Below, in pieces: positions 16,353 to 55,202 of a DNA stretch of 64,000 bases. Source of the DNA: a virus (Duplodnaviria; Caudoviricetes); the IMG/VR virus record IMGVR_UViG_3300036713_000599. One strand, written 5' to 3'. The notes beneath the pieces were generated by a model. It saw only the letters and a program-made list of their open reading frames with translations, made no database searches and had not been told where the DNA came from. Position numbers and translations under genes: made by a program. How positions within the stretch are numbered: position 1 is the first letter of the stretch; each line of letters starts with the position of its first letter.

Positions 16353-16645
16353 TTTCTCCTGAGGTGAAACCATCGTCTGGGGTTTAGAATAATTTTTCCG
16401 GGTCTAGACAGGTCAGAGGTTATTCGAGTGTTTCGATCAGCCGCAATCTTTTCAGGTCGGCACACTCGAATTCTTCCTTCCATGTGGCATTTGACAGGGT
16501 CCTTTTTTACATACTTCTTCTTGACGGGGACATCGACCACGATCACGATGGTGTCGAGGACGATTACCTTCGGAGGCTTCGCTTGGGCCGTAGAGATGGC
16601 TGACAAGGCACCGAGAAGGATTCCTACGAGAATTTGTTTTGTCAT
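16349..16645 (-). CDS. secreted hypothetical protein
   Basis: Signal-peptide-like MTKQILVGILLGALSAISTAQA. Confidence 0.55.
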   Translation of the reverse strand: MTKQILVGILLGALSAISTAQAKPPKVIVLDTIVIVVDVPVKKKYVKKDPVKCHMEGRIRVCRPEKIAADRNTRITSDLSRPGKIILNPRRWFHLRRK

Positions 16646-37204: not shown

Positions 37205-37247
37205 CCCCGCCCTAAAGGACGGGGCTTCCGCGCCAGAGAACGGTGAA
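37205..37247. repeat. IS200/IS605-end-like hairpin motif, copy 1
   Basis: ccccgccctaaaggacggggcttccgcgccagagaacggtgaa; 37 of 43 nt identical to 47267-47309. Confidence 0.75.
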
Positions 37248-37296
37248 GTCGGAGTTCGTTCCACGACCGAGAGGATTGATTGTTCTTGCTTGGTCA

Positions 37297-39526: not shown

Positions 39527-40372
39527 ATGCAGAAGCTAGCGACCACCCAAATCAAATTGGCTCACAAGGCTAACATCACGGCCCGTAAGATTTACGCATC
39601 CTTGCCTTTTGGTTACCGGTTCGGTGCGATGATGGAGATCTTCTCTGATTCGTATGCAGGGATGAAGGATATGCTGGCCCGTGTCCTTTATGCGGAATTT
39701 CTGAAGGCTGGTGTTCCAGGGATGGTGGTAGGTGGGGTACCTGGAGAGGAGCTTCGGGACAAGGCGATCGAAATGGGTCGGAACGCTTACCGCCTTATCC
39801 CAAAAGGATACGGTAGTCAATTTGCTCGGAAACTTCTTGGGATGGTTCGGAACAAACTTGCGACCGAGGACTTGACCCAGGAGTTTTTGGGCGAGTTGAT
39901 GCTGATGGTCACCGAAGGCAAGCTTAAGATCAACGGTAGTAGTGCCAAGAGTCTGAAGGGGGCCGAATCTTTCACTCTGACGTTTGTTTCCCGTCGCGTC
40001 ATCGATTTTCTTCGGAGCCGGGGTCCAAGAAACCAGGAAGTTTCCATCAGTCCTGGTGGATCGGACGAAGAGGCCCCTAGATTCGAGATTGAAGATCCTC
40101 GAAGTGTGTCGAATATTCTCAACCGAATAACTCCTGGCGAGGAGAAGAGGTTGATTGCCGACTTAGGCAAGATTGACCGACGAAATCCTGAACGTCCTCT
40201 GCAGTATGTTCAGTTCAAGATGGAAGGTATGACCAACCAGCAGATTGCGGACGAGTGGTGGCCCCACCAGCAGGTCAACAAGGGCTCGATGTCTGATTGG
40301 GTGAAGAGACATCTTCCGGACATAAAGGCCGTCTTCAGTAAATATGTCTGGTCTATGCGTGAGGTGGTGTAA
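39527..40372 (+). CDS. sigma-70/ECF-like factor 2
   Basis: EDLTQEFL, FVSRRVIDFLRS (region 2), FKMEGMTNQQIADE...VNKGSMSDWVKR (region 4 HTH). Confidence 0.65.
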   Translation: MQKLATTQIKLAHKANITARKIYASLPFGYRFGAMMEIFSDSYAGMKDMLARVLYAEFLKAGVPGMVVGGVPGEELRDKAIEMGRNAYRLIPKGYGSQFARKLLGMVRNKLATEDLTQEFLGELMLMVTEGKLKINGSSAKSLKGAESFTLTFVSRRVIDFLRSRGPRNQEVSISPGGSDEEAPRFEIEDPRSVSNILNRITPGEEKRLIADLGKIDRRNPERPLQYVQFKMEGMTNQQIADEWWPHQQVNKGSMSDWVKRHLPDIKAVFSKYVWSMREVV

Positions 40373-40381
40373 GTTCCCTTC

Positions 40382-41947
40382 GTGGAACAACTTAACACCA
40401 TTATCTGTGGCATCACCCTCGAAGTACTAAAAACCCTCCCCGACAATTCTGTCGACGCTGTTGTGACCGACCCCCCTTATGGTCTCGGCCAAAGGAAGAT
40501 TTCGTCGGAACAGCTCGTTGGGTTCCTGCAGGGAGATGGTCTTGACACAGGGGGAGACTTTATGGGGGCTAAATGGGAGATTCCTTCTGTCCTCGTGTGG
40601 AAAGAAGTGTACCGAGTTTTGAAGCCCGGTGGTCACGTTTTGTCGTTTGGGGGAACGCGGACAATAGATCTCATTAGCTTGGGTCTTCGGGCAGCTGGTT
40701 TTGAATTTCGCGATTCGATTTTGAACATGTACGCTTGGTGTTATGGGTCAGGTATGCCAAAATCTGAGAACATTTCCAAGCGGATAGACAAAAGAGCGGG
40801 TGCTAAAAGGGAGGTTGTCGGTAAGAGCCCTTACGCGGCCCGTGCAAATAAGCACCCAAGAGCTATGTCTCCAGGCGACCTTCCCAGGAAGGTTGAAGAC
40901 ACGAGGGAGATCACAGCTCCTGCGACTCCCGAGGCTAAGCTTCACGAGGGTAAGGGTACGGGACTCAAGCCTTCTTTCGAGCCCGTCGTGCTTTTCCGCA
41001 AACCCTGTGAAGGCACCACTACGGACAATGTCTTGAAGTATGGGACAGGTGCTCTCAATATTGATGCGTGTCGAGTTAAGCATTCAAACAAGAAGGATTT
41101 TGAGAACCACAAGTCCCAGGTCGACGCGGTCAGAGCCAAGGGCGGAGTGCGGGACGGATCTTGGAAGAATGCTTCGGACCTTTCTGGGGCTAGTGAGGTG
41201 ACTTCGGCCGGTCGGTGGCCGCCGAACATGACGCTGACGCACCATCTAGATTGTCGGAAGGTTGGGAGTAGGAAGGTGGACGCTCCCGTCATTAATCGGT
41301 TTGATGACGGAGCCAAGCCTTTTGGTGGTGGGGCCGGCCACCAGTACACCTCGACGCAGACGGGTGATGCCGACGGGAAAGAAGACATCATTGTCTGGGA
41401 TTGCGTTGAGGGGTGCCCAGTCAGAGAACTGGATGAACAAAGTGGTGTACTGACTTCTGGTACAGGCGCTGTGAAGAAGGCTTCTGCGAGAGGGGGGAAA
41501 CGTCAAGGGGTTGTTTATGGGAAAGAGACTCGACCAGAAAACACGCCGAATATTGAGTATGTGGGTTCTGGTGGAGCTTCTCGCTTCTACGGCCAGTTCC
41601 AGGACTCCGGGGCACCCTTCCGGTACGTCACCAAACCTTCGGCCAAAGAGTACACCCTCAACGGGCAGATCGAGAATACGCATCCGACCAAAAAACCAAT
41701 AGATTTAATGCGTTGGCTCGTTAGGCTCGTATGTACCAAGGGAGGCACGGTTCTTGATCCTTATTGCGGGTCAGGGTCAACTCTTCACGCAGCCTGCGAG
41801 GAGGGCATGAACTACATCGGTATCGACAAGAACGAGACTGCTTGCAAGATTTCTCGTGATCGGATGAACATTGTCTCAGGTAGGGAGGAGGCACGTCGTG
41901 ACCAAATGGATGTTTTTGACCTTATGATGGGGCTAGACGATGAGTAA
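40382..41947 (+). CDS. beta-class N6-adenine/N4-cytosine DNA methyltransferase
   Basis: VVTDPPYG precedes HPTKKP and VLDPYCGSGST; GTG 10 nt after GGTGTA. Confidence 0.93.
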   Translation: MEQLNTIICGITLEVLKTLPDNSVDAVVTDPPYGLGQRKISSEQLVGFLQGDGLDTGGDFMGAKWEIPSVLVWKEVYRVLKPGGHVLSFGGTRTIDLISLGLRAAGFEFRDSILNMYAWCYGSGMPKSENISKRIDKRAGAKREVVGKSPYAARANKHPRAMSPGDLPRKVEDTREITAPATPEAKLHEGKGTGLKPSFEPVVLFRKPCEGTTTDNVLKYGTGALNIDACRVKHSNKKDFENHKSQVDAVRAKGGVRDGSWKNASDLSGASEVTSAGRWPPNMTLTHHLDCRKVGSRKVDAPVINRFDDGAKPFGGGAGHQYTSTQTGDADGKEDIIVWDCVEGCPVRELDEQSGVLTSGTGAVKKASARGGKRQGVVYGKETRPENTPNIEYVGSGGASRFYGQFQDSGAPFRYVTKPSAKEYTLNGQIENTHPTKKPIDLMRWLVRLVCTKGGTVLDPYCGSGSTLHAACEEGMNYIGIDKNETACKISRDRMNIVSGREEARRDQMDVFDLMMGLDDE

Positions 41948-42560
41948 ATTGGATCTTTCCTCTTTCGCGTACGTACCGATCGACAGTGACGACCCCAACA
42001 AGATCTACAGCAAACCCTTCTCTGTTTTGGATATTGTTGGGAATGTGTGGAACGTTGTGACTAACAGGGAGTGGCTTGTCGCAGTGAAGGGGAAGGCTGT
42101 TTACGGTCGATGGAAAGGCGGAGAGAGTCAACTCAATGCCGTGCTGAAGTTTGTCCAGTCAAACAAGATCAATCCTCGTCGTATAGCTGTCACCAAACTT
42201 CAGGATCTGGTGACAAAGAGTAGGACAGGTGTCTTCAAGTTCCCCCGGGAAGAGAACCAAGAGGGGGATGGTCGAGCTGTTGTTCAGTTAAGTAAGCTCG
42301 CTACCGTCCTTGAGGCATGCACGAAGGAGTACCTTGAGGTGTGGGATGCGTCTACCACGGCCAACTATTTGCCCTGCGTTGGCCTCTCGGAGCCTGGTCG
42401 ACGAATGTTCCTTATGGGGTGGACGGGAAGTCTTTTGACGGCTGAGGATTTTGACGTGGATGGTGAATCTGAGAAGTCCCAGCCCACTGTCCAGGCGGTT
42501 GAACAACAGGAGTTTCCCGAAGGTATGGACGCGTTCGATATCATGATGAGTCTTGAATGA
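41940..42560 (+). CDS. hypothetical protein
   Basis: 206 aa, overlaps the methyltransferase stop. Confidence 0.7.
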   Translation: MSKLDLSSFAYVPIDSDDPNKIYSKPFSVLDIVGNVWNVVTNREWLVAVKGKAVYGRWKGGESQLNAVLKFVQSNKINPRRIAVTKLQDLVTKSRTGVFKFPREENQEGDGRAVVQLSKLATVLEACTKEYLEVWDASTTANYLPCVGLSEPGRRMFLMGWTGSLLTAEDFDVDGESEKSQPTVQAVEQQEFPEGMDAFDIMMSLE

Positions 42561-42798
42561 GCCAAAGTTTTTTCGCACGCGTTAGCTTTTTGATGGCGTG
42601 TTCTCGTCTGAGGGCCTCTCCAAGGCTCTTTTGAGGTTCCCAGTGTACGAGACACCACGGTCCCTGCCCGCGCGTTCTGCGTGCACCTGAGCCGTTGTTG
42701 TGGGCTTTTAGTCTTCGGTCGATGTCGTTGGTTATGCCGGTATACAGGTGGTCGGTTTTTTGACTTCGGAGTATGTAGACTCCCCAGCCGGTTACCAT
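42541..42798 (-). CDS. GIY-YIG nuclease (UPF0213-like)
   Basis: WGVYILRSQKTDHLYTGITNDIDRRLKAHNNG...EALRREHAIK. Confidence 0.9.
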   Translation of the reverse strand: MVTGWGVYILRSQKTDHLYTGITNDIDRRLKAHNNGSGARRTRGQGPWCLVHWEPQKSLGEALRREHAIKKLTRAKKLWLIQDSS

Positions 42799-43421
42799 GT
42801 GAGGTTGCCTTCGTCTTTCCGCATACGGAGTTTGGATAGAATCCAAGGGCCGTGGACGGTGGAACAAAAAAGGCCGCCGGCCCACCTCTTCCGGTCGTAG
42901 TCGGACAAATCTTTCATGGCTCTGTCGCGTCGCATGGCGATGTTGTGTGCTGCCGCCCTGATCATATCGTCTCGGTACCGGCCCCAGTAGGGGGCGTGGG
43001 CCATAACCCAGACAGAATAGTCAACTTGCCCTTCTTCGTAGAATGGATCTCCCTCAGGAAAATCGTTTAGGTTCGCGTGAAGCAGCTCATGGCAGACTTT
43101 TTCGAGAGTCGTCCCTGGCCTGCCCTCAACATAGTCTTTACATAGCCGGATCTGGCCGTTGGATGGCTGGAAACTTGCGTTGGCTCCTGCCGCGTGAAAA
43201 GGGTCTTCGATGGGTAGGATGTTAGGAGAAGGTTCTTTCTGGAACGGTCCCAGGCACTCGTGTATGAAAACATAGCACTTGTAGGCAGACCTTTCGATAA
43301 AACGATCCCAGTTGTTTCCACAGATCTTGCTTTCGAAGAGTGTGGTGAGAGCGGCTGTCCGGGACTTAAGTAGCCGTCTAGAGGTGCTGTTGAGTTGTTC
43401 TTGGACTTCTTTGGGCAGCAT
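42792..43421 (-). CDS. putative zinc metallopeptidase
   Basis: KVCHELLHANL (HExxH) and downstream EEG. Confidence 0.55.
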   Translation of the reverse strand: MLPKEVQEQLNSTSRRLLKSRTAALTTLFESKICGNNWDRFIERSAYKCYVFIHECLGPFQKEPSPNILPIEDPFHAAGANASFQPSNGQIRLCKDYVEGRPGTTLEKVCHELLHANLNDFPEGDPFYEEGQVDYSVWVMAHAPYWGRYRDDMIRAAAHNIAMRRDRAMKDLSDYDRKRWAGGLFCSTVHGPWILSKLRMRKDEGNLTW

Positions 43422-43477
43422 ATCAACTCACATGGGGTACAAGAACTTCTTGTGCCCATCTTTCTATAGGAGATATC

Positions 43478-43720
43478 ATGTACAACTACGATCGTACTGC
43501 CAGTTCAGACGAACAGAAAGCTTCTGACCTTGTCAAGTTGGTTCGAGAGGCCGAGCAGCATCGCCGCAAGGCAGAAATGTCGCTAATAAAGGCCAAACTA
43601 GTGGTCAAGTCCTTGGACCCTGTGTTAGTCAAGGAATACAATAAGACGGTAGATCATCTCTCCAAGGCATCCAAAATGATCGACGATCTGTATCGGAAGG
43701 CGGTGGAGATTAGAGGCTAG
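43478..43720 (+). CDS. helical hypothetical protein
   Basis: AGGAG RBS. Confidence 0.65.
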   Translation: MYNYDRTASSDEQKASDLVKLVREAEQHRRKAEMSLIKAKLVVKSLDPVLVKEYNKTVDHLSKASKMIDDLYRKAVEIRG

Positions 43721-43762
43721 TGGTCTTTAATTTCCGCGATTCCGACTTTGTAGGAGTTTCCT

Positions 43763-44797
43763 ATGCCTAATGAAATGCCAGGGTCTGCCCGTTACGTCCG
43801 CACTAACCTTGCGACTCCTACAACAGGGGTCGGACTTACACCTACCTGGAGAGGACAGGCGATGCTTCCGAACACGTCGGTCCCTCTCTTACCGGGGGCA
43901 AGTTTTGATGCACGAGGTAGAGGTGCTTTCCCTTTGATGGTGCCGGGCAGGTTTCCCCGCGGTCCTCGTATTTCTGGGCAGCGTGGGACCTTTGATTTGT
44001 GGATCCGAACAGGAGCAGACGCCACGGCTCGCACTGTGGCTTATCTTACTGACGATCTTGCTCGGCTTTCGAATTTTATTGCGTTTAAGATCGATACGTC
44101 TAACCGGCCCCTCGTGGAGTTTCAGCAGGAGACAACTCCCCTCTCAGCTGCTACCGGGACTCTCATAGCAGTAGGTGCTCTTACCAACACGGAGACTGTT
44201 GTCGTTGACGGTAAAACCTACACGATCCAGAGCAGTCTTACTGATTCGGACGGGAATGTTTTACAAGGTGCCACAGTAAGCGATACTTTGAACAATCTTG
44301 TGGCGGCTATCACGCTCGGGCCAGGGAAGGGGACTCTGTACGCGGTTTCGACTACTCTACATCCAACTGTACTGGCGGCTCGTGGAGCAGGGGACACCAT
44401 GGTTGTGACTGCGAAGACTCTGGGTACTTCTGGTAACTCGATTACAACTACAGAGACGACTGTGAACGCGAGTTGGGGAGGAGCGACGCTCTCAGGTGGA
44501 GCTGGTACGACGACTACGCAGGCAGCAGTGACGCCAGGTGTCGGTTATCCTGTGGTAGGTGAGAACGTTCTCGTACATACCCAGATGAAGTGGGATACGT
44601 CGAATTTCGTGGATGGTGTGAGACACGTGTCTTTGGTGACAAACGAGGCACGTGTTCCTGATATTGACTGGTCAACAGATCCTACGTCTGCTTGGGCTCA
44701 CTTCGTCCCGACTCACCTGGTACTTGCGGGGCCAGCTCTAGGAGACGCTGAATTTAACGGTAGTGTGGTGGCAGCACAGCTTTCTGAGTCCCTCTAG
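43763..44797 (+). CDS. probable virion structural protein
   Basis: Thr/Gly/Ala-rich segment TVVVDGKTYT...TLNNLVAAI...VTAKTLGTSGNSITTT typical of tail/structural proteins. Confidence 0.55.
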   Translation: MPNEMPGSARYVRTNLATPTTGVGLTPTWRGQAMLPNTSVPLLPGASFDARGRGAFPLMVPGRFPRGPRISGQRGTFDLWIRTGADATARTVAYLTDDLARLSNFIAFKIDTSNRPLVEFQQETTPLSAATGTLIAVGALTNTETVVVDGKTYTIQSSLTDSDGNVLQGATVSDTLNNLVAAITLGPGKGTLYAVSTTLHPTVLAARGAGDTMVVTAKTLGTSGNSITTTETTVNASWGGATLSGGAGTTTTQAAVTPGVGYPVVGENVLVHTQMKWDTSNFVDGVRHVSLVTNEARVPDIDWSTDPTSAWAHFVPTHLVLAGPALGDAEFNGSVVAAQLSESL

Positions 44798-44834
44798 GCA
44801 GCACTGAATCCTCTTATTGATCGTGGTACGTACT

Positions 44835-44945
44835 ATGGCTGAAGAAAAAACCTGCAAGATCTGTAAACGTACTCGCCCAGTCACTGAGTTCGAGACCCGA
44901 AGAGGTCAACGCAAAAGCGTGTGTGTGAAATGCACACCTCCTAAA
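44835..44945 (+). CDS. 36-aa CxxC..CxxC zinc-finger peptide (not in ORF track)
   Basis: MAEEKTCKICKRTRPVTEFETRRGQRKSVCVKCTPP*. Confidence 0.5.
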
Positions 44946-45042
44946 GGTAAGCCTTAGTCCTTGCTGCCAAGGGCTCGTCATTACCTTTTCGTTAACTGGT
45001 CTGGTCAGTGATTAAGTGTCTCAGCGAGATCACTGATTCTAG

Positions 45043-45288
45043 TTAGTGTGTTCTTCTGGCGGCACTGTGGAATATTTTAGCAAGGTCGTCTTCGTTCGGA
45101 TCGTTTTCCGAGTCTTCTCTTAACCTGATGGCGTCAACTGATCGGGCTATTTTACGATCGGTCACTTTGTGGCTAAGGTTGAACGCTTTAGCTACAGCGT
45201 ATGAGAAGTCGCCAAAGTCTTTTATGAATTCTCGGCACCATGGGTAGGGCTTACCTGTGGCCTTGCTCAACTTGCTCGCTCTGTTCAC
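45043..45288 (-). CDS. hypothetical protein
   Basis: GTG 10 nt after GGTGTA (45299-45304). Confidence 0.55.
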   Translation of the reverse strand: MNRASKLSKATGKPYPWCREFIKDFGDFSYAVAKAFNLSHKVTDRKIARSVDAIRLREDSENDPNEDDLAKIFHSAARRTH

Positions 45289-45387
45289 ATTCCAAGTATA
45301 CACCGACGTATGGGTGTATACCACCTTCCCTGGAAGCAGTTTCTGGTTTTTAGTGGAGAAGGTTGTTGGTTTAAGTCCAACTAGGTA

Positions 45388-45759
45388 TTAGTCAATTGCC
45401 CCTGGAGTGCTCCCTTTTTCAGGTTCATCTAGCCTGGCAAGAAGCTTCGCGGGAAGATACCTCTTTTCTGTTTTCTGTCCCAATTCTTGTGCCAGTTTTT
45501 GGGCTTCCGTCATTCCTCCAGAGAACCCTAGATCTGCATAGAAAGCTCGAAGATCAGCAACCCTGGCCCAACAGAACCCAGCCTCCATACCTAGTCTTCG
45601 TTCTTCTGGGACGCGGTCGTCAAGCATCTGGGTGTATATCAGGTGTGATGCGTACGGTGCTTCCCCTCTTCTGAGGCTGTCTAGGCAACAAAGCCTAGTG
45701 TATCTTGTGTTTCGGGCGAAGTCTCCGCTGAGGGGCGATTCAATGATGACTCTCTTCAT
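45388..45759 (-). CDS. nucleoside deoxyribosyltransferase-like (DUF4406-like) phage protein
   Basis: VIIESPLSGD, GEAPYASHLIY, LDD, LGFSGGM; ATG 10 nt after GGTGTA. Confidence 0.65.
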   Translation of the reverse strand: MKRVIIESPLSGDFARNTRYTRLCCLDSLRRGEAPYASHLIYTQMLDDRVPEERRLGMEAGFCWARVADLRAFYADLGFSGGMTEAQKLAQELGQKTEKRYLPAKLLARLDEPEKGSTPGAID

Positions 45760-45996
45760 GTGACTTGTGTACACCAAAGGAGGGCGGGGCGGAATCGCCG
45801 GTTTTGTCCTCTGGTGGTTAGAAGAGCCGGCTTCTAACCAGACAACAGTAAGGTGTGTCCTAAGGCTGGTGGGTCGGTCTCTAGAACTGACTACAGGTGT
45901 CCGATCCGATCTCCTGTTTGGAGTCGTGTAGTGGTCAGGTTTCTTTCATTTGCCTACTGTAGTAGGATACTGTGCGAGTCCGAGTCTCGCTGGTTA

Positions 45997-47181
45997 TCAC
46001 GGAATAGCTCCACCGAGCAGCCCTTGTACGGCGGTCGCTAGTCGATCGATAGCGTCGTTGAGGTCAGTGGGGACAGGAGGGTTCCAGTTTGCTGGGGCTG
46101 TTGTCGTGTAGCCTGCTGTGTTGATGTAGGCCGCACCTGTCCCCGCTGTGGTGCCAGTGATGACATTGGCGTCGAGCCTCAGGGTCCCAGAAGCCCCTAC
46201 ATTGTATGCCTGGGTGCTGTCGAGATAGAGAGTTTTAAGGGAGACCTCTCCACCATTGCACACAATGCCAGCACCTGACCCAGCTCCGATTTCGAGTATG
46301 TGTGCGACATACCCGATGGTTGTCCCGCTGCCGATTCTTGCGATACCTATTCCAGTGCCGGTGATATAAATGTCTTCGGCCATGATATGAGTGTGGCCGT
46401 TCGCGACACTTGCGTCCCCTATAGCGTTACCGTTTTCTACGAAGGTCGAACGAACTTCGTAGATCAGAACACCCCCGGTAGCCAGGTTTGCACAACCTGT
46501 TGAACCCCCTGTGGCGTATACGGCCTGGGCCTCCACTCTCGTTGTCCCTGTCTGCCCAGAGGGCTTCAGGATTCCGTAGGGATTACCGGACGCTTCGACT
46601 GTGCCAATGTCTGTGTAGGTATCATCGGCAACGGTCAGGGTTCCTTGTAGGGTGATGTTGGGGGCGTACAGGTGCACCCAATCACTGAGAGTAATGTCTT
46701 CCGCGTACACGCCAGCATCTAGGCACGTAATCGAGAATTGGTTGGTTGAGCTTGGTGTTGCTGCTACAGCGGCGTCTTTGGCAGATGTTAGGGTGAGCTT
46801 CGCCGTGTCATAGCTCAATCCTGTGTTCGCGTCATTTCCATGTTTACCAACCCAGTACCGTTGGACGCTTGCGGGGAGCGAGCCTCCAGCAGAAGGTAGG
46901 AGAAGCCATCTCCCCTCTCCGGATTTGGTTGCGACGACCGTTGAGCCGTTTGGGGTTGCTGTTGAGGACCTGTCAACGTAGAAAGTCTGGTTTCCTTGTT
47001 TGACTGGTTTTCTAGCATTGTCCAGAAGACTATAATCGTCAACCTCTTCGAGGTCAGGAGGTGTATCTACCGGCTCAATCTGAGCTTCAAGTATATTGAA
47101 AGGGGCGTCCATCCGTCGAGTCAGGTCGGCGGGAACGAACGCTTCTCGGAGAACACGGCTTTTGGGATAGAGGTTCGGCAT
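45997..47181 (-). CDS. probable tail fibre/spike-like beta-helix protein
   Basis: TATPNGSTVVATKSGEGRWLL and YWVGKHGNDANTGLSYDTAKLT, followed by Gly-rich beta repeats. Confidence 0.55.
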   Translation of the reverse strand: MPNLYPKSRVLREAFVPADLTRRMDAPFNILEAQIEPVDTPPDLEEVDDYSLLDNARKPVKQGNQTFYVDRSSTATPNGSTVVATKSGEGRWLLLPSAGGSLPASVQRYWVGKHGNDANTGLSYDTAKLTLTSAKDAAVAATPSSTNQFSITCLDAGVYAEDITLSDWVHLYAPNITLQGTLTVADDTYTDIGTVEASGNPYGILKPSGQTGTTRVEAQAVYATGGSTGCANLATGGVLIYEVRSTFVENGNAIGDASVANGHTHIMAEDIYITGTGIGIARIGSGTTIGYVAHILEIGAGSGAGIVCNGGEVSLKTLYLDSTQAYNVGASGTLRLDANVITGTTAGTGAAYINTAGYTTTAPANWNPPVPTDLNDAIDRLATAVQGLLGGAIP

Positions 47182-47230
47182 GTCTCTTTTGCGAGGTCAC
47201 AAGAGGATTCTGGCGCAGGCGGCTAGACAA

Positions 47231-47309
47231 GTCAACTGCCTCGCCCTGAAGGGCGAGGCAGTTGACCCCCGCCCTGAAGGACGGGGTCTCCGCGCGAGAG
47301 ACCGATGAA
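47231..47309. repeat. perfect 16-bp hairpin plus IS200/IS605-end-like motif, copy 2
   Basis: gtcaactgcctcgccc-tgaa-gggcgaggcagttgac, then ccccgccctgaaggacggggtctcc...gatgaa. Confidence 0.85.
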
Positions 47310-47405
47310 TTTGGTTGGTGTGATGTACGGGAAGAAGGTCGACAAACCTAAGGCTCTTTGAGAATTTGGTCCGATTCGAGGAAGATAGGAGGAGGTCCCT
47401 ACTTG

Positions 47406-47783
47406 CTACTTTAGGGCGCGTCTACCTAGTGTCACGAATTCACCTAAGGACATTCGCAAGGCTTCTTGCCGTTTCTTGATACGATCTGAAACAGCCCTGA
47501 GTTTGGGAAACTCTTTCTTGTAGAAATCGCTGATATTGTAGTCTATGTCAGGCACTGATCTCACATATTTTAGAAATTCTTCGGCTTTCTTTACCTTCTG
47601 TTCGAGCATCTCTTTACCGTCTGAGCTTGCGGTTCGATCAGGATCAAGCCTGTCTGCGAGATCGTGTAGTTTTTCTGCTACGACCTCTCTGCTTGGTCTT
47701 TCGTACGAACTGACGAATTCTAAGACATTCTGGATCTCTGTCTGTAGCTCTTGGGGAGATGCTATCTTTTTCATGTAAGCCAT
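47406..47783 (-). CDS. hypothetical phage protein
   Basis: MAYMKKIASPQELQTEI...DRTASSD. Confidence 0.7.
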   Translation of the reverse strand: MAYMKKIASPQELQTEIQNVLEFVSSYERPSREVVAEKLHDLADRLDPDRTASSDGKEMLEQKVKKAEEFLKYVRSVPDIDYNISDFYKKEFPKLRAVSDRIKKRQEALRMSLGEFVTLGRRALK

Positions 47784-47806
47784 GGGCTAAAAAATGTTTA
47801 TCACGG

Positions 47807-47835
47807 TTGACAACTGTATTTTCTGGCGGTATAGA
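47807..47835 (+). promoter_or_regulatory. sigma70-like promoter
   Basis: TTGACA-17 nt-TATAGA with no convincing plus-strand ORF downstream. Confidence 0.6.
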
Positions 47836-47841
47836 TAGAAT

Positions 47842-48184
47842 TGATAGGAAGTGGAGTCAACGATAACCAAGTTGGCGTCATTTTTCATCACAACCGGTAG
47901 GAAACATATACGGTGTTATTATCTCGGGGTGCCGACAGGCTCCGCCCCCTGCGTAAGCGGCTTGGGCGGAAATAAATCGATAATGGCTTAGGTCGCCCGA
48001 CTAAACCGAAGCCCTCAGCTGGGAAGAGACAAGGTGCTCAATACGGGAGCGAGCCCACACCCAGCACACCCTTGGTTGGTTTTTTCTGGCCTCGTGGTGC
48101 CCGTTGACGGCTCGGAAAGACGAGCACTTGAGCATACTTGGAGTTCCGGTGTGGTTCGATTCCACCTATGCTCTCCTAGAACCA
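47842..48184 (+). ncRNA. candidate structured ncRNA ending in a tRNA-like acceptor/T-arm module
   Basis: Hairpins at 47941-47970 (GTAA tetraloop) and 48110-48125; GAGCATA (48130-48136) pairs TATGCTC (48167-48173) around GTGG-TTCGATT-CCAC. Confidence 0.45.
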
Positions 48185-48227
48185 TTTTACCTCATAGAGA
48201 TAAAATGGTGGATCGGACAACGACTCT

Positions 48228-48503
48228 TTACGAGGAGCTTGTAAAGACACCGCGCACCCATGAAACTACTAGGGCTAGGAGACCTCCTATGAACACGGCG
48301 TTGAGGAACAACAAGCCTCCCATGTCGTGGTGAATGAGTCTCCCGCCCCAATGTAGGAGGCTGGGGAGGCGGCTGACATCTGGCTGGATGGACAACTCCG
48401 TCTCTAGCTGAATTTGAGGATTTGCTAGGAGATCCACGACGGCGTAGACGAGGATACCTATAGTGTTGATTCCCCAGAGGAGCAGGAACTTTTTGACACT
48501 CAC
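48228..48503 (-). CDS. small two-TM membrane protein (holin-like)
   Basis: Two hydrophobic helices in 91 aa. Confidence 0.5.
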   Translation of the reverse strand: MSVKKFLLLWGINTIGILVYAVVDLLANPQIQLETELSIQPDVSRLPSLLHWGGRLIHHDMGGLLFLNAVFIGGLLALVVSWVRGVFTSSS

Positions 48504-48535
48504 GATCTATCTGTTCGATAAGTGGACCACAAGGA

Positions 48536-48916
48536 CTACAGTACAGGTTCATTGTCTTTTACGAGTTGCCCGATCGTTTTGGCGAGATAGTCTGCTACCT
48601 TGGAGGGATGCCCGCTCTTGGCACGAACCTTCTTGGCACCGAATAGGTTGACCAATGCCTTGGCTTTGACCTTTGTGGCGGGATCTTGGTCGAAGTCCAC
48701 CATGAAGACAGCACGGTTGTTCATTGCTTGTGCGCCTGTCGATCCATAGGACTTCGGTAGATTGATAAGAGTGACTGCGACATTTGTTGATCCGAAGCGG
48801 CTGTCCACTTCGACAAACACTTGTCGATCTTCGACATTAAGTTTTCTTTCAAGCTCTTTTTTGAAGTCTTCGGCACTCATGGGTTCGTCGGCAGATGTTT
48901 TGTAATAGTCGTTCAT
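48536..48916 (-). CDS. hypothetical protein
   Basis: 126 aa, GAGG RBS. Confidence 0.7.
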   Translation of the reverse strand: MNDYYKTSADEPMSAEDFKKELERKLNVEDRQVFVEVDSRFGSTNVAVTLINLPKSYGSTGAQAMNNRAVFMVDFDQDPATKVKAKALVNLFGAKKVRAKSGHPSKVADYLAKTIGQLVKDNEPVL

Positions 48917-48976
48917 TTTTTAACCTCTGCGTGTAATACGATCTGAGTTCGCATATGTTCGGTTGTGGTTGTGAAT

Positions 48977-49438
48977 TTATCTGAGCGTGTTCGAGGGCTG
49001 TGTGTCTGGTACAGGTTCTTCGTCCGTGTTCAACCCGTCCGGTAGATCTTCCGAGAACGTGTTCCGCCTTTTTCGTTCGATGGCGAACGCGACGCGTCGG
49101 AAGATCATGGTTGTGTTGGTGAAGTTTTTGACGATGAAGTCCTCTGCTCCGAGTCGGATCATCCGGAGAGCCAGTTGCAGGTCGGTCGTATTGCTGACCA
49201 CTACAATAGGTATCTCCGGGTATGCGTTGTGTAGTGTCAAGAAGGTGTCGATACCGGACGAGTCAGGTAAATGTAGGTCCAGGATGACGCAGTCGAACAC
49301 GCCTCGCTCCAGGTAGTCACGAGCAGACTGTAGGTTACCTACCTCTCGGAACTTGGCCTCAGAGATGTAATGCTCTTGAAGGGCGAACACGAGGAGTTCT
49401 CGGTCAACGGAGCTGTCTTCGACGATCAGGATGTTCAC
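48977..49438 (-). CDS. response-regulator receiver protein
   Basis: ILIVED, VILDLHLPD (phospho-Asp), VVVS, FIVK. Confidence 0.92.
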   Translation of the reverse strand: MNILIVEDSSVDRELLVFALQEHYISEAKFREVGNLQSARDYLERGVFDCVILDLHLPDSSGIDTFLTLHNAYPEIPIVVVSNTTDLQLALRMIRLGAEDFIVKNFTNTTMIFRRVAFAIERKRRNTFSEDLPDGLNTDEEPVPDTQPSNTLR

Positions 49439-49713
49439 ACGGCCTCCTCTATCTTTTTGACAGGAACGTGCCCTTTTGGCCCTTCAATGACACCATCTTC
49501 GATCGGCCACCCTTTTTGTAGCGCCAGTGCGTCGATATCCCGTCCGCGGACAACAGCACTTGCGATGTCTTTGGCTTGGCCACTTGAGAGCCCTGTCTCC
49601 TCACGGATCATTTGAACAAGTCTTTTGACTTTGTTTTCTTTCTTTTCTTTTGGCTGGTATTTAAAGGCTTCTTTAAGGTATCTTTGGACGACACGTGCGG
49701 TAATAGATCCCAT
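49435..49713 (-). CDS. hypothetical protein
   Basis: MGSITARVVQRYLKEA; stop overlaps the receiver start. Confidence 0.65.
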   Translation of the reverse strand: MGSITARVVQRYLKEAFKYQPKEKKENKVKRLVQMIREETGLSSGQAKDIASAVVRGRDIDALALQKGWPIEDGVIEGPKGHVPVKKIEEAV

Positions 49714-49829
49714 GCTTACGTCATACATAGGTAAATTTTCGGCAGTGTCTTAGGTTTGGCCGCAGTTCAGCAGACCGGGGCACTGATTTCTGTGGCCGGG
49801 TGCTGCAGGCTTGAGCTTTACCAGACAGA

Positions 49830-50270
49830 CTAGGAGGGTGTGTAGGGAGGGGGCGTGCTTCTGTGGGGTAGTAAGGTGAACTGTAGCCACAGGTAGTGGA
49901 GTTTTCGGGCTAACCTCAACAGCTTCGGGAAACCTACAGGTTTTCGCACGAAGGCGTTGCATCTGCACTCATATGCTTTCTGTACGTCCTGAGGGTGTTT
50001 GGAATTGGTCAGGATGACAACAGGTATCAGGTTGATGTCGGGGTCGGCGTCTTGTCGGATCTCTTTGAGTACTTCAAGTCCACCTACCTTGGGCATATTT
50101 AGATCAAGTAGGACCAGTTTTGGTTTTTTGGGCATCCCTCTCAGAGTTTTAAGCGCAGCTTCCCCGTCCGTTGCAATCGTTATTGACGGCATGTGTGTAC
50201 AGGCATCCCTGAAAGCTTCTGTGAGAAGCTCGGCATCGGTCGCATTATCCTCAACCAGGAGTATGTCCAT
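49830..50270 (-). CDS. single-domain response regulator (Rcp1-like)
   Basis: ILLVEDNATD, LVLLDLNMPKVGGLEVL, PVVILTNS, NAFVRKPV. Confidence 0.95.
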   Translation of the reverse strand: MDILLVEDNATDAELLTEAFRDACTHMPSITIATDGEAALKTLRGMPKKPKLVLLDLNMPKVGGLEVLKEIRQDADPDINLIPVVILTNSKHPQDVQKAYECRCNAFVRKPVGFPKLLRLARKLHYLWLQFTLLPHRSTPPPYTPS

Positions 50271-51348
50271 TTTCGACCCTAGGTAGTGTGAAATGGAATT
50301 TTGTACCTACCCCTGGTTTCGACCAAGGCCAGATTTTACCTCCGTGTTGCTCTATAACGCGGCGCGCGATGGCGAGACCGATCCCTGTGCCAGGGTACTG
50401 TTCGATCGTATACAGGCGTTGAAAGACACCGAAGATCTTGTTTTTGTGTTGCATGTCAAAACCGATCCCGTTATCGCTTACAGTAATCTTCCACAAAAAC
50501 GGGCCGTACGGTTCCACTTCTATTTTGATGTGAGGCGGTTCGTTTTTCCGTCGGTACTTGATCGCGTTCGAAAATAGATTCTGAATAACTTGGGCGACCA
50601 TACTACGGTCACCATGGATGAGAGGCATGTCGCCCGCTACTTCGATGCGTGCCTTAGATGTGTCTATTTTTCTGACTAGTGACCGTTTTGCTTCCTCAAT
50701 GGCAGCCCCTAACGGGAAAGGCTCGAAGGGTCTTTCTTGGCCTGCCTTCGAAAAGGCCAGAAGATCGTCTAGCTTTTTTTCCATCTGTTGTGAAACGGTC
50801 ACGATCCGGTCTAGAAAATGACACCCTCGTTCGTCTAGGGCGGACTGGTACCTTTTTTGTAGAAGGGTCGCGAATCCTGCAATCCCGGTGAGAGGCTCAC
50901 GGAGGTCGTGTGACACCAGAGACGTGAACTGAGTGAGAGCCTGGTTGACCTCTTGGAGCTTGTGTTGGTGTTCGACGGACTCTGAGATGTCTCTGGTAAT
51001 TACGACGGCAGTATTGTTCGAAGATTTTCCCATATGGGCTTGAAAGTGCTCCAAAGTACCGTTCTTTTTAGGCACAGAGTAAGACAGTATCGCACTCTCT
51101 CCTGTTTCAATGACTTTGCGGACAGCTTCTGTGATCTTGTTCGCGACGTCTTCAGGTAACAGGTCTCTGACATTTTCGCCTATGGGTTTGTTGGTGGAGG
51201 TGAACAGGTACCGCCCTTCTGCGTCGATTTCCGACACAGGATCAGGAAGGGCTTTCATGATACCGTGCAACCTGCCTAGAACTCTCCCTCTCGGGCACTG
51301 GTGTTCGTTCTCACACCTTGGTGGAGTATTTGGGATTATTTGTGTCAT
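50251..51348 (-). CDS. soluble PAS-histidine kinase
   Basis: PAS-like ALPDPVSEIDAEGRYL...VVITRDISE; H-box VSHDLREPL; N-box QNLFSNAIKY; DNGIGF; IFGVFQRL; GTGIGLAI. Confidence 0.95.
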   Translation of the reverse strand: MTQIIPNTPPRCENEHQCPRGRVLGRLHGIMKALPDPVSEIDAEGRYLFTSTNKPIGENVRDLLPEDVANKITEAVRKVIETGESAILSYSVPKKNGTLEHFQAHMGKSSNNTAVVITRDISESVEHQHKLQEVNQALTQFTSLVSHDLREPLTGIAGFATLLQKRYQSALDERGCHFLDRIVTVSQQMEKKLDDLLAFSKAGQERPFEPFPLGAAIEEAKRSLVRKIDTSKARIEVAGDMPLIHGDRSMVAQVIQNLFSNAIKYRRKNEPPHIKIEVEPYGPFLWKITVSDNGIGFDMQHKNKIFGVFQRLYTIEQYPGTGIGLAIARRVIEQHGGKIWPWSKPGVGTKFHFTLPRVENGHTPG

Positions 51349-52289
51349 TGGCTGTTACTTGGTGGTGGTGTGGTCTCGATTGGTGCCGTGATGGTGGTTT
51401 TTTTGTTGGTGTTGGCCGCGAAGTAGGTCGCAGCTGCTGTGGCAAGTACGCCGAACAGAGTTAGGGCGGCGATAACTACCTTTACCCACAGGTCCATCTT
51501 GGTTCGCATTGTCTGGTTGTGTTCCTTGAGCACCGTCATACCTGTCTCAGTCACTTCGTCGTGTAGACCGTCGACGTTGCCTTCGAGAACACTGATCCGG
51601 TGGTCCAGGAGGTCAACCTGGGAACGCATACTTGGGCGATTACTGTGACCTCGCAACAGTTCTTTGTCCAAGAGTGTGACTGTTTTGATTATTTCGTCTT
51701 GCTGTAGCCCTTGTTTGGCGATCTTGAGGCTGATGTCTTGCAGTGCTGAGAAAGTCTTTCGGGACAGATCTGCCACAGCTGAGGTGGTTTCAACTTGCAT
51801 GTCTCGAATAGTGTCGGCACTGGCCCCCCTCTTTTGGGCTTTGTTCATCTTTAACTTTGTGCTAGACACTCGACGAAAACTATCCGCCTCTGTGGGTTCT
51901 AGTCTTACATTTCGTTTGTGTTTTTCGATGGCGAACACGATGCGTCGAAAAATGTCTTCTTCGTCTGTGTACTTTTTTAAAATGAAGTCGGCGGCCCCTG
52001 ATTGGATCATTTCGACTGCGAGGAGCCGATCCTTGTTGTTGGTCATCACAATGAACGGCACATGGGGGTACTGGTCGTATAGTTTTTTGAATGTTTCTTT
52101 GCCGATCGAATCAGGCAGATGAAGGTCGAGTACAACACAGTCGATTGTCTCAGTGTCCAGGATATGAACAGCTGCCGCCAGGGACGGTGCTTCGTACAAA
52201 GTTACCTCTCCTCGGAATTGTTCTTGGAGCAGGTACCGTAGGATTTCTCGGTCCGGGGCTCTGTCTTCTACGAGCAGTATGTGTTGCAT
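51345..52289 (-). CDS. receiver-coiled-coil-transmembrane fusion protein
   Basis: ILLVED, VVLDLHLPD, FILKK; LDHRISVLEGNV coiled coil; C-terminal VKVVIAALTLFGVLATAAATYFAA. Confidence 0.88.
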   Translation of the reverse strand: MQHILLVEDRAPDREILRYLLQEQFRGEVTLYEAPSLAAAVHILDTETIDCVVLDLHLPDSIGKETFKKLYDQYPHVPFIVMTNNKDRLLAVEMIQSGAADFILKKYTDEEDIFRRIVFAIEKHKRNVRLEPTEADSFRRVSSTKLKMNKAQKRGASADTIRDMQVETTSAVADLSRKTFSALQDISLKIAKQGLQQDEIIKTVTLLDKELLRGHSNRPSMRSQVDLLDHRISVLEGNVDGLHDEVTETGMTVLKEHNQTMRTKMDLWVKVVIAALTLFGVLATAAATYFAANTNKKTTITAPIETTPPPSNSQ

Positions 52290-52714
52290 TTCAAGTAATA
52301 TGGGCCACAAATGCATTTGCGACGACCAGAGGAGCAGTAAGAGTTCGGGTCTTTTGTTGCGGCTGGTATACAGTGTAGAGATACCGAGGTAACACGGTTA
52401 CCGGTAGGATCAGATGACGGCTTTCTACGAGAAGGCAGTGTTGGTGTCGGATTTAGTGATTAGGAGGTGTAGCATGGTTTGGAGATTTTCCAGTTTTGTT
52501 GGATTTTTCACTGTCAGGGTCCCAGGGCAAGAGGATCAGAAATATTCTGAGTTCTGTGAGGCTGCGGATGCTGTTATCAGGTCTAAGAAATATACGATGC
52601 TTTTCGATCCGTGCGGTGATCTTATGTTGACCAAAGGATCCCCCTCTTGATTGCTTGTGTGGAGCTGGTTGTTCCGGGGAGACGTACGAGATCTTGTTCT
52701 GGGCTTGATTCCTG

Positions 52715-52960
52715 GTGAAAATAATGTCGAAAAAACTAGAAAGACCGGTTATCCGGGTCACCTCTGAGGAAGGCTTTCCAGGTTCCGGTTCTTGGCGTAC
52801 AGAATGTCAGTGTAATCCGGGTTGTGTTGAATACAGGTGTCTTAGTTGTAGGGAGGTGTGGTGTAGCCGTCCCAGTAAGGGCCCGTGTCCCAAATGCGGA
52901 CACCATAAATTTGTGTGGTGTAATTACACAGAATGGTGTAGATCACATGAAATGACTTAG
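52715..52960 (+). CDS. Cys-rich zinc-finger protein
   Basis: CQCNPGC, CLSC, CPKC. Confidence 0.55.
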   Translation: MKIMSKKLERPVIRVTSEEGFPGSGSWRTECQCNPGCVEYRCLSCREVWCSRPSKGPCPKCGHHKFVWCNYTEWCRSHEMT

Positions 52961-53088
52961 TGGTGACGTGTTGGTAAACTGTCCCTCTGGTCCTAGAGGG
53001 AGTTGAGTGGGGCTCACGCCCTGCTGTTCCTGTTTCACCTCAACGGTCCTGGTCGATGTTTGGCGTCAATGTGCGAGAGGAATGATGT

Positions 53089-55202
<2,114 letters not shown>

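Follow-up and report, generated by a model that had tools for sequence, protein, structure and literature searches.

Within the 64,000-nt window (the whole stretch of phage DNA analysed here), positions 47911 to 48129 on the plus strand apparently encode a conserved, uncatalogued noncoding RNA of about 220 nt whose known distribution is narrow. The homolog of this structured core in the nearest relative, G001, lies inside a tRNA island (263795-263990), and in the window the core is followed by a 45-nt tRNA acceptor/T-arm stub (48130-48174, plus strand). We consider it probable that the core is an island-derived stable RNA and that RNase P forms its 3' end by cutting at the stub.

The conserved core and its genomic setting

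The window belongs to G000, a 240,951-bp phage fragment that is about 50% complete. Relatives were collected using the phage's SNF2 helicase as bait, the nearest being G001 (372 kb, 85% identity); loci retrieved with GroEL as bait were not relatives of the clade. The G001 island holds about 49 tRNA/tmRNA genes interleaved with protein genes, and islands of like kind are found in relatives G004, L153, L157/L163, and L161. ANDN-type tmRNA tags in the relatives are compatible with many bacteria as host. The protein genes at 40-55 kb of the window are those interleaved with tRNAs in G001 (40-84% identity): between window positions 40000-55200 and G001 245-280 kb, the flanking protein genes are kept and about 49 tRNA/tmRNA genes are missing, the stub being the only tRNA remnant in the phage's syntenic interval. 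EF-Tu, thymidine kinase, and a ThiF cluster are likewise present in that part of G001 and missing from the window interval. Default ARAGORN returned neither tRNA nor tmRNA over the whole 240,951-bp record, and since this is only about 50% complete, the rest of the genome may still hold tRNAs. On the minus strand lie a divergent 125-aa ORF (47406-47783), whose N terminus is homologous to a gene within the G001 tRNA island, and a convergent 126-aa ORF (48536-48916) with a 50% ortholog within the same island. A two-component cluster at 48977-52316 (a PAS histidine kinase and three receivers) is conserved inside the tRNA island in relatives. The same locus arrangement is found in a contig from an independent assembly, which may stem from the same sample.

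Compared with G001, the core is the sole conserved noncoding block within 39-57 kb. It aligns with an E value of 5e-25 and 144 of 193 columns identical (75%); as a neutral yardstick, the four-fold degenerate sites in five orthologs are 34% identical (214/625). On this measure, the roughly 220 nt upstream of the stub are conserved far beyond the neutral level. Substitutions are spread evenly over codon positions (13/13/12) and no start codon is held in common, which speaks against a small protein-coding ORF. In G001, the core follows directly on the CCA with which a tRNA-Ser(GGA)-like gene ends, and it stops where a degenerate tRNA-Ser(TGA) (Rfam 31 bits) has its first base. Two further partial homologs occur in contigs of a sediment run, each a single contig of low depth (2.4 and 3.5) in which errors are possible. 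Full-length core contigs from this run possibly represent the source of the phage DNA and hence are not independent, so that only two full-length independent sequences, phage and G001, are available.

A model of the core (R1), run against 50 records of viruses and 11 loci of relatives, matched in G001 only; the family gave no match in the islands of five other relatives or in the 49 other viral records searched, and L163 has the terminal hairpin in common with the core but not the rest. Exact-pattern scans of viral contigs returned G001 plus chance matches. Those of metagenomes came back empty and those of genomes gave chance matches, and they are weak because G001 itself was not returned and one homolog varies within the patterns. 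GenBank phages gave no match by blastn or tblastn. In agreement with the initial annotation, which had taken the RNA to be undescribed, the window matches no Rfam family: at gathering and E-value thresholds (E<=10), it and the G001 locus yield T-arm fragments only, and no description of the ~220-nt RNA was found in an incomplete coverage of the literature. That annotation had also called the RNA tRNA-like, which does not hold for the conserved 220 nt.

A 40-pair model of the core has both sides changed in seven pairs between phage and G001, with 79 of 80 cells able to pair; because it was drawn from the same two sequences, these counts are supportive rather than proof. Five compensated pairs fall in stems built wholly of Watson-Crick pairs (null p 0.002-0.012), and the indels amount to one whole hairpin (47941-47970) and one loop extension. 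Folding of the whole 351 nt exceeds that of shuffles to a modest degree only (z -1.57).

All elements of the model lie on the plus strand. Helix P1 (47919-47923 with 47979-47983, domain 47919-47983) is known in three different paired versions from three sequences and encloses a small 3-bp hairpin (47931-47940). The 30-nt insertion at 47941-47970 is a hairpin with a GTAA (GNRA) loop found in this phage only; of the hairpins reported initially, which are present, the GNRA one is absent from two homologs. One partial contig homolog supplies the third P1 pairing version; it has the terminal hairpin but not the insertion. Helix P3 (47985-47989 with 48009-48013, spanning 47985-48013) has a variable interior; it is invariant in three sequences, has one mismatch in G001, and is kept in both partial contig homologs. 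The most conserved domain (48018-48065) contains helix 48018-48023/48060-48065, with one compensation, and two invariant 3-bp hairpins. A possible pseudoknot (47927-47930 with 48068-48071) is likewise invariant, without covariation and with alternatives, and invariance leaves it and the central hairpins unproven. A G.U-rich hairpin of variable loop length is modelled at 48074-48091. The 3' terminal module (48105-48129) consists of TGAC, a 5-bp stem, a GANAGA loop, and a 4-nt spacer, has two compensations, and recurs in relatives' tRNA islands. A GANAGA terminal-hairpin module also lies within a relative's tmRNA (L157:3270-3300, minus strand).

Pairing of the invariant CGAGCCC with the universal T loop is predicted in both genomes, but we rejected it since the G001 duplex energy is nonsignificant (320 of 500 shuffles) and a third homolog alters the CGAGCCC loop. 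A motif scan of the core found no hammerhead, group I, T-box, SRP, HDV, or RNase P motifs.

Other structured RNAs occur in the relatives' islands. L161 carries a bacterial type A RNase P RNA (16384-16581, minus strand; RF00010, 134.7 bits), its 5' part lost at the contig end and stub-like T-arm units coming after it; an RF00010 search found no RNase P RNA encoded in G000 or G001. Noncoding repeats of a tRNA-like module extend over 1-2 kb in L144:4900-6800 (G001 264.9-266.8 kb), L163:4850-6006, and L146:5400-6500; in the module, a T arm comes after a valine-anticodon-like loop and a normal acceptor is missing, and GANAGA hairpins are also present. These stretches adjoin a ThiF/JAB-like gene cluster, score nothing above weak tRNA/mascRNA values in Rfam, and are possibly a larger ornate RNA or a tRNA-Val decoy array. 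A mini-tRNA at L163:5062-5113 has a 7-bp acceptor, a single hairpin, a T arm, and an encoded CCA.

The acceptor/T-arm stub and the flanks

The stub consists of an acceptor 5' strand (48130-48136), a 13-nt linker, a T arm (48150-48166), and an acceptor 3' strand (48167-48173), followed by T as residue 73 and then C, C, and T. The 7-bp acceptor and the linker are as initially described, whereas the T stem has four Watson-Crick pairs instead of five, the remaining position being a U.C mismatch or, alternatively, a bulged U. The stub has U-1/G+1, G1-C72, a canonical T loop, and G-C as pair 3-70. Three T-arm-like motifs occur in the 241-kb record, and only the one at 48150-48166 has a 7-pair acceptor partner; the chance of a perfect 7-pair partner within 40 nt is about 0.004. 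Its G+1 lies 4 nt past the terminal hairpin, the identical spacing to that of tRNA +1 in G001 and in L163, where the terminal-hairpin module stands before a tRNA-Leu. Energy models favour, by about 8 kcal/mol, alternative folds that pair the T loop.

No ortholog of the stub was found. G001 has in its place a full, degenerate tRNA-Ser of unrelated acceptor sequence, so that the stub acts like a boundary element open to exchange. The initial annotation had seen the tRNA half as the functional end of the RNA; that view is not supported, since the conserved, covarying part is the upstream 220 nt and the stub is swapped for tRNA-Ser in G001. A tRNA or tRNA pseudogene was rejected on the lack of a D or anticodon arm (the linker has only 13 nt) and of any traceable parent among 156 clade tRNA/tmRNA genes, the best of which agrees at 21 of 32 positions. 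An attachment-site remnant was rejected as well, given the stub's own 7-bp partner, no second copy in the genome, and no integrase among the neighbours.

A pattern scan found 13 acceptor/T-arm stubs of like build in unrelated viral contigs (L007, L011, L012, L014, L015, L018, L019, L008, L016, L009, L010, L013, and L017); six acceptor pairs were fixed by the pattern (start GAGCAT), and the T stems covary. GAGCAT stubs often come after a short hairpin, and those of L009 and L010 lie directly behind a permuted tmRNA.

On the 5' side, the candidate sigma70-like promoter (47807-47835, plus strand) was read correctly, with TTGACA, a perfect -35 element, at 47807-47812, a 17-nt spacer, and TATAGA at 47830-47835; a consensus scan misses it because the -10 element lacks the final T. 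It is unlike the phage's common promoter motif, GGTGTA. Among hexamers upstream of window ORFs, GGTGTA shows the strongest enrichment, 10-20 nt before the start, with sites that include 16798, 24039, 29019, 31636, 56700, and 62808, and it is probably the phage promoter core. The candidate is followed by a lineage-specific 49-nt leader hairpin (47842-47890, plus strand), not found in G001, and together they occupy the position of a tRNA in G001.

A second copy of the segment 47808-47893 (plus strand) lies at G000 228335-228250 (minus strand; 84% over 76 nt, E 4e-18). The second copy has neither promoter hexamer and runs directly into a match to 48174-48188 (12/15, p about 0.008). Since it joins the leader to this flank, the 280 nt from 47894 to 48173, core plus stub, look inserted or deleted; insertion into a small promoter-hairpin unit would account for the RNA having a promoter again. 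The second leader hairpin copy (L001:4250-4340, equal to G000 228250-228340, minus strand) stands head-to-head with the SNF2 helicase promoter and is absent at that place in six relatives. An IS605-end origin of the duplicated leader was rejected, because the leader does not resemble the repeated elements of the genome. Short GC-rich hairpins that resemble IS200/IS605 ends and share a GCCCT-AAGGACGGGG motif occur at window positions 47231-47309 and 37220-37250.

On the 3' side, the ACCA of the initial annotation is present at 48181-48184; it sits 7 nt past the discriminator and opens a 9-bp inverted repeat (48181-48209, neither strand assigned, no U tract), so that no CCA is encoded in register. 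The repeat is likely a transcript end or barrier.

Proposed maturation and competing explanations

We propose that the core encodes a stable, multihelix noncoding RNA belonging to a small family from huge-phage tRNA islands. In G001, it would be cotranscribed with tRNAs, its 5' end produced by 3' maturation of the upstream tRNA-Ser and its 3' end by the RNase P cut of the downstream tRNA. The phage has lost the tRNAs and tmRNA of the interval and kept the core, which here has a promoter-like site and a leader hairpin of its own in front. A cut by RNase P ahead of G48130 would place the core 3' end 4 nt past the terminal hairpin, with the 45-nt stub as a by-product. RNase P contacts the acceptor and T stems and can do without the rest of the tRNA; it also cleaves truncated substrates, at lower affinity (PMC11221534). 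Moreover, a tRNA-like module sets the 3' end of the upstream RNA in MALAT1 (PMC8457004), as do tRNA-like elements for upstream RNAs in plant mitochondria (PMC1920247). We infer that the core is transcribed. RNase P cleavage at 48129/48130 is predicted, since U-1, G1-C72, and a canonical T loop are present and acceptor plus T arm suffice. Against an RNase P handle stand the imperfect T stem, the missing CCA, and the competing folds that bury the T loop. A missing CCA slows bacterial RNase P.

These flaws also suit a reading in which the core is real and the stub is what decay has left of a tRNA after deletion of the island, with no processing role and with the RNA end set by the terminal hairpin or the inverted repeat. 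The massive tRNA loss in the interval fits such decay, as does the degeneracy of the tRNA-Ser at the same place in G001 (Rfam 31 bits). However, the other tRNAs are gone without trace, whereas in the stub all seven acceptor pairs are still Watson-Crick, the T loop is perfect, and the register is exact. The stub is similar to none of the 156 clade genes, and unrelated phages have stubs of like build whose T stems covary. We therefore regard simple decay as unlikely. The initial annotation had suggested a possible decoy for anticodon nucleases or uncharged-tRNA sensors, which we find improbable for the whole 340-nt RNA and for a released, CCA-added stub alike: there is no anticodon loop to bait nucleases, the ACCA is out of register, and G001 replaces the stub by an unrelated tRNA while the non-tRNA-like core stays conserved. 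In its favour, U73 and G1-C72 are compatible with CCA addition, a family of like stubs exists, and released mascRNA-like stubs can receive CCA.

Two further readings concern the RNA as a whole. That the conserved block acts as DNA, as a protein-binding site or origin, or reflects recent transfer rather than RNA selection, seems quite improbable to us. Long invariant runs, a narrow distribution, and the insert-like appearance of 47894-48173 relative to the second leader copy speak for it; against it stand compensations that include G.U-compatible changes, hairpin-sized indels, core ends that abut tRNA processing sites, and four diverged versions that solve the same helices differently. A degenerate or noncanonical tmRNA is hardly credible. 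Like tmRNA (RF00023), the locus has an acceptor/T-arm module near a pseudoknot-capable RNA, with a similar total length, a 3'-terminal T arm, and a sub-threshold ARAGORN call; relaxed ARAGORN, however, makes 543 calls in the phage genome, which is noise. The tmRNA acceptor joins the 5' and 3' ends of the RNA and has G3.U70 and A73, whereas the stub acceptor is local, with G-C and U73 and lacking a CCA. As the initial annotation had recognized in setting the RNA apart from standard tmRNA, no tag is recognisable. Rfam at E<=10 matches only the 15-nt T arm (9.7 bits), and the core aligns neither to the clade tmRNAs nor to the separate, intact tmRNA of G001.

Returning to the island-derived RNA matured at the stub, the mature product would serve as a folded scaffold whose invariant single strands bind a protein of the host or the phage, independently of tRNA supply. 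A bound partner is suggested by the long invariant single-stranded runs, and independence of tRNA supply by the survival of the core without tRNAs. A scaffold role during infection is the weakest step of the proposal and, to our minds, doubtful.

Relation to known RNAs and significance

The closest parallels lie among RNAs that border tRNA-like modules. In mascRNA/menRNA of MALAT1/NEAT1 (RF01684; PMC8457004), a reduced tRNA-like module likewise lies directly 3' of a structured noncoding RNA, without an encoded CCA and placed for RNase P to make the upstream 3' end; the phage stub stands immediately 3' of its RNA in the register of tRNA +1 in G001 and L163. The phage locus differs in its phage/bacterial setting, in having no triple helix or A-rich tract, and in that its cleavage is predicted, and RF01684 gives no match to the window at E<=10. 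Plant mitochondrial t-elements (PMC1920247) are likewise noncanonical and tRNA-like, with a T-arm motif, and mark ends for RNase P/Z. They delimit organellar mRNAs, whereas the cargo of the phage stub is a noncoding RNA and the stub replaces a real tRNA of a relative.

The location of the G001 homolog between two tRNA-Ser genes recalls GOLLD (RF02032) and ROOL (PMC12286853, PMC5737381), which are likewise multihelix phage noncoding RNAs in tRNA islands, probably cotranscribed, but of 400-800+ nt against 220 nt for the core. The GOLLD model RF02032 has no match in G000 or G001, core motifs were not seen among the GOLLD/ROOL alignment rows listed, and the GANAGA hairpin, considered as a GOLLD motif, was not seen among those rows either. 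T4 RNAC and RNAD sit in a tRNA cluster. They, too, are small phage RNAs of unassigned function (PMC9697503); they are set apart from the core by size and architecture, and the core matched none of the T4-like records in the phage collection. RNase P RNA, including reduced phage forms, was rejected for want of a CR-I/CR-V P4 and an RF00010 match, and YrlA/Y RNA for want of an RF02553 match at E<=10 and a D arm. With respect to theta/HDV-like ribozymes, the G001 core starts at a tRNA 3' end, and a simple motif scan and Rfam were negative.

Phage tRNA islands hold ornate RNAs, such as GOLLD, ROOL, and T4 RNAC/D, that may be partners of tRNAs or merely be matured by tRNA processing. The locus described here is a natural deletion experiment on this question, with the tRNAs gone and the RNA and one cleavage handle left. 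In its boldest form, which we offer as speculation and rather doubt, a pseudoknotted RNA outlived about 50 tRNA genes and the tmRNA by virtue of an important function, and the 45-nt handle is a prokaryotic counterpart of mascRNA serving solely to mature it, the RNA being an RNP scaffold or ribozyme of a new class active during infection. If confirmed, the locus would favour maturation by tRNA processing over working with tRNAs, would bring mascRNA-type 3' end formation to prokaryotic viruses, and would provide a small (220-nt), tractable RNA for structure determination and partner hunting.
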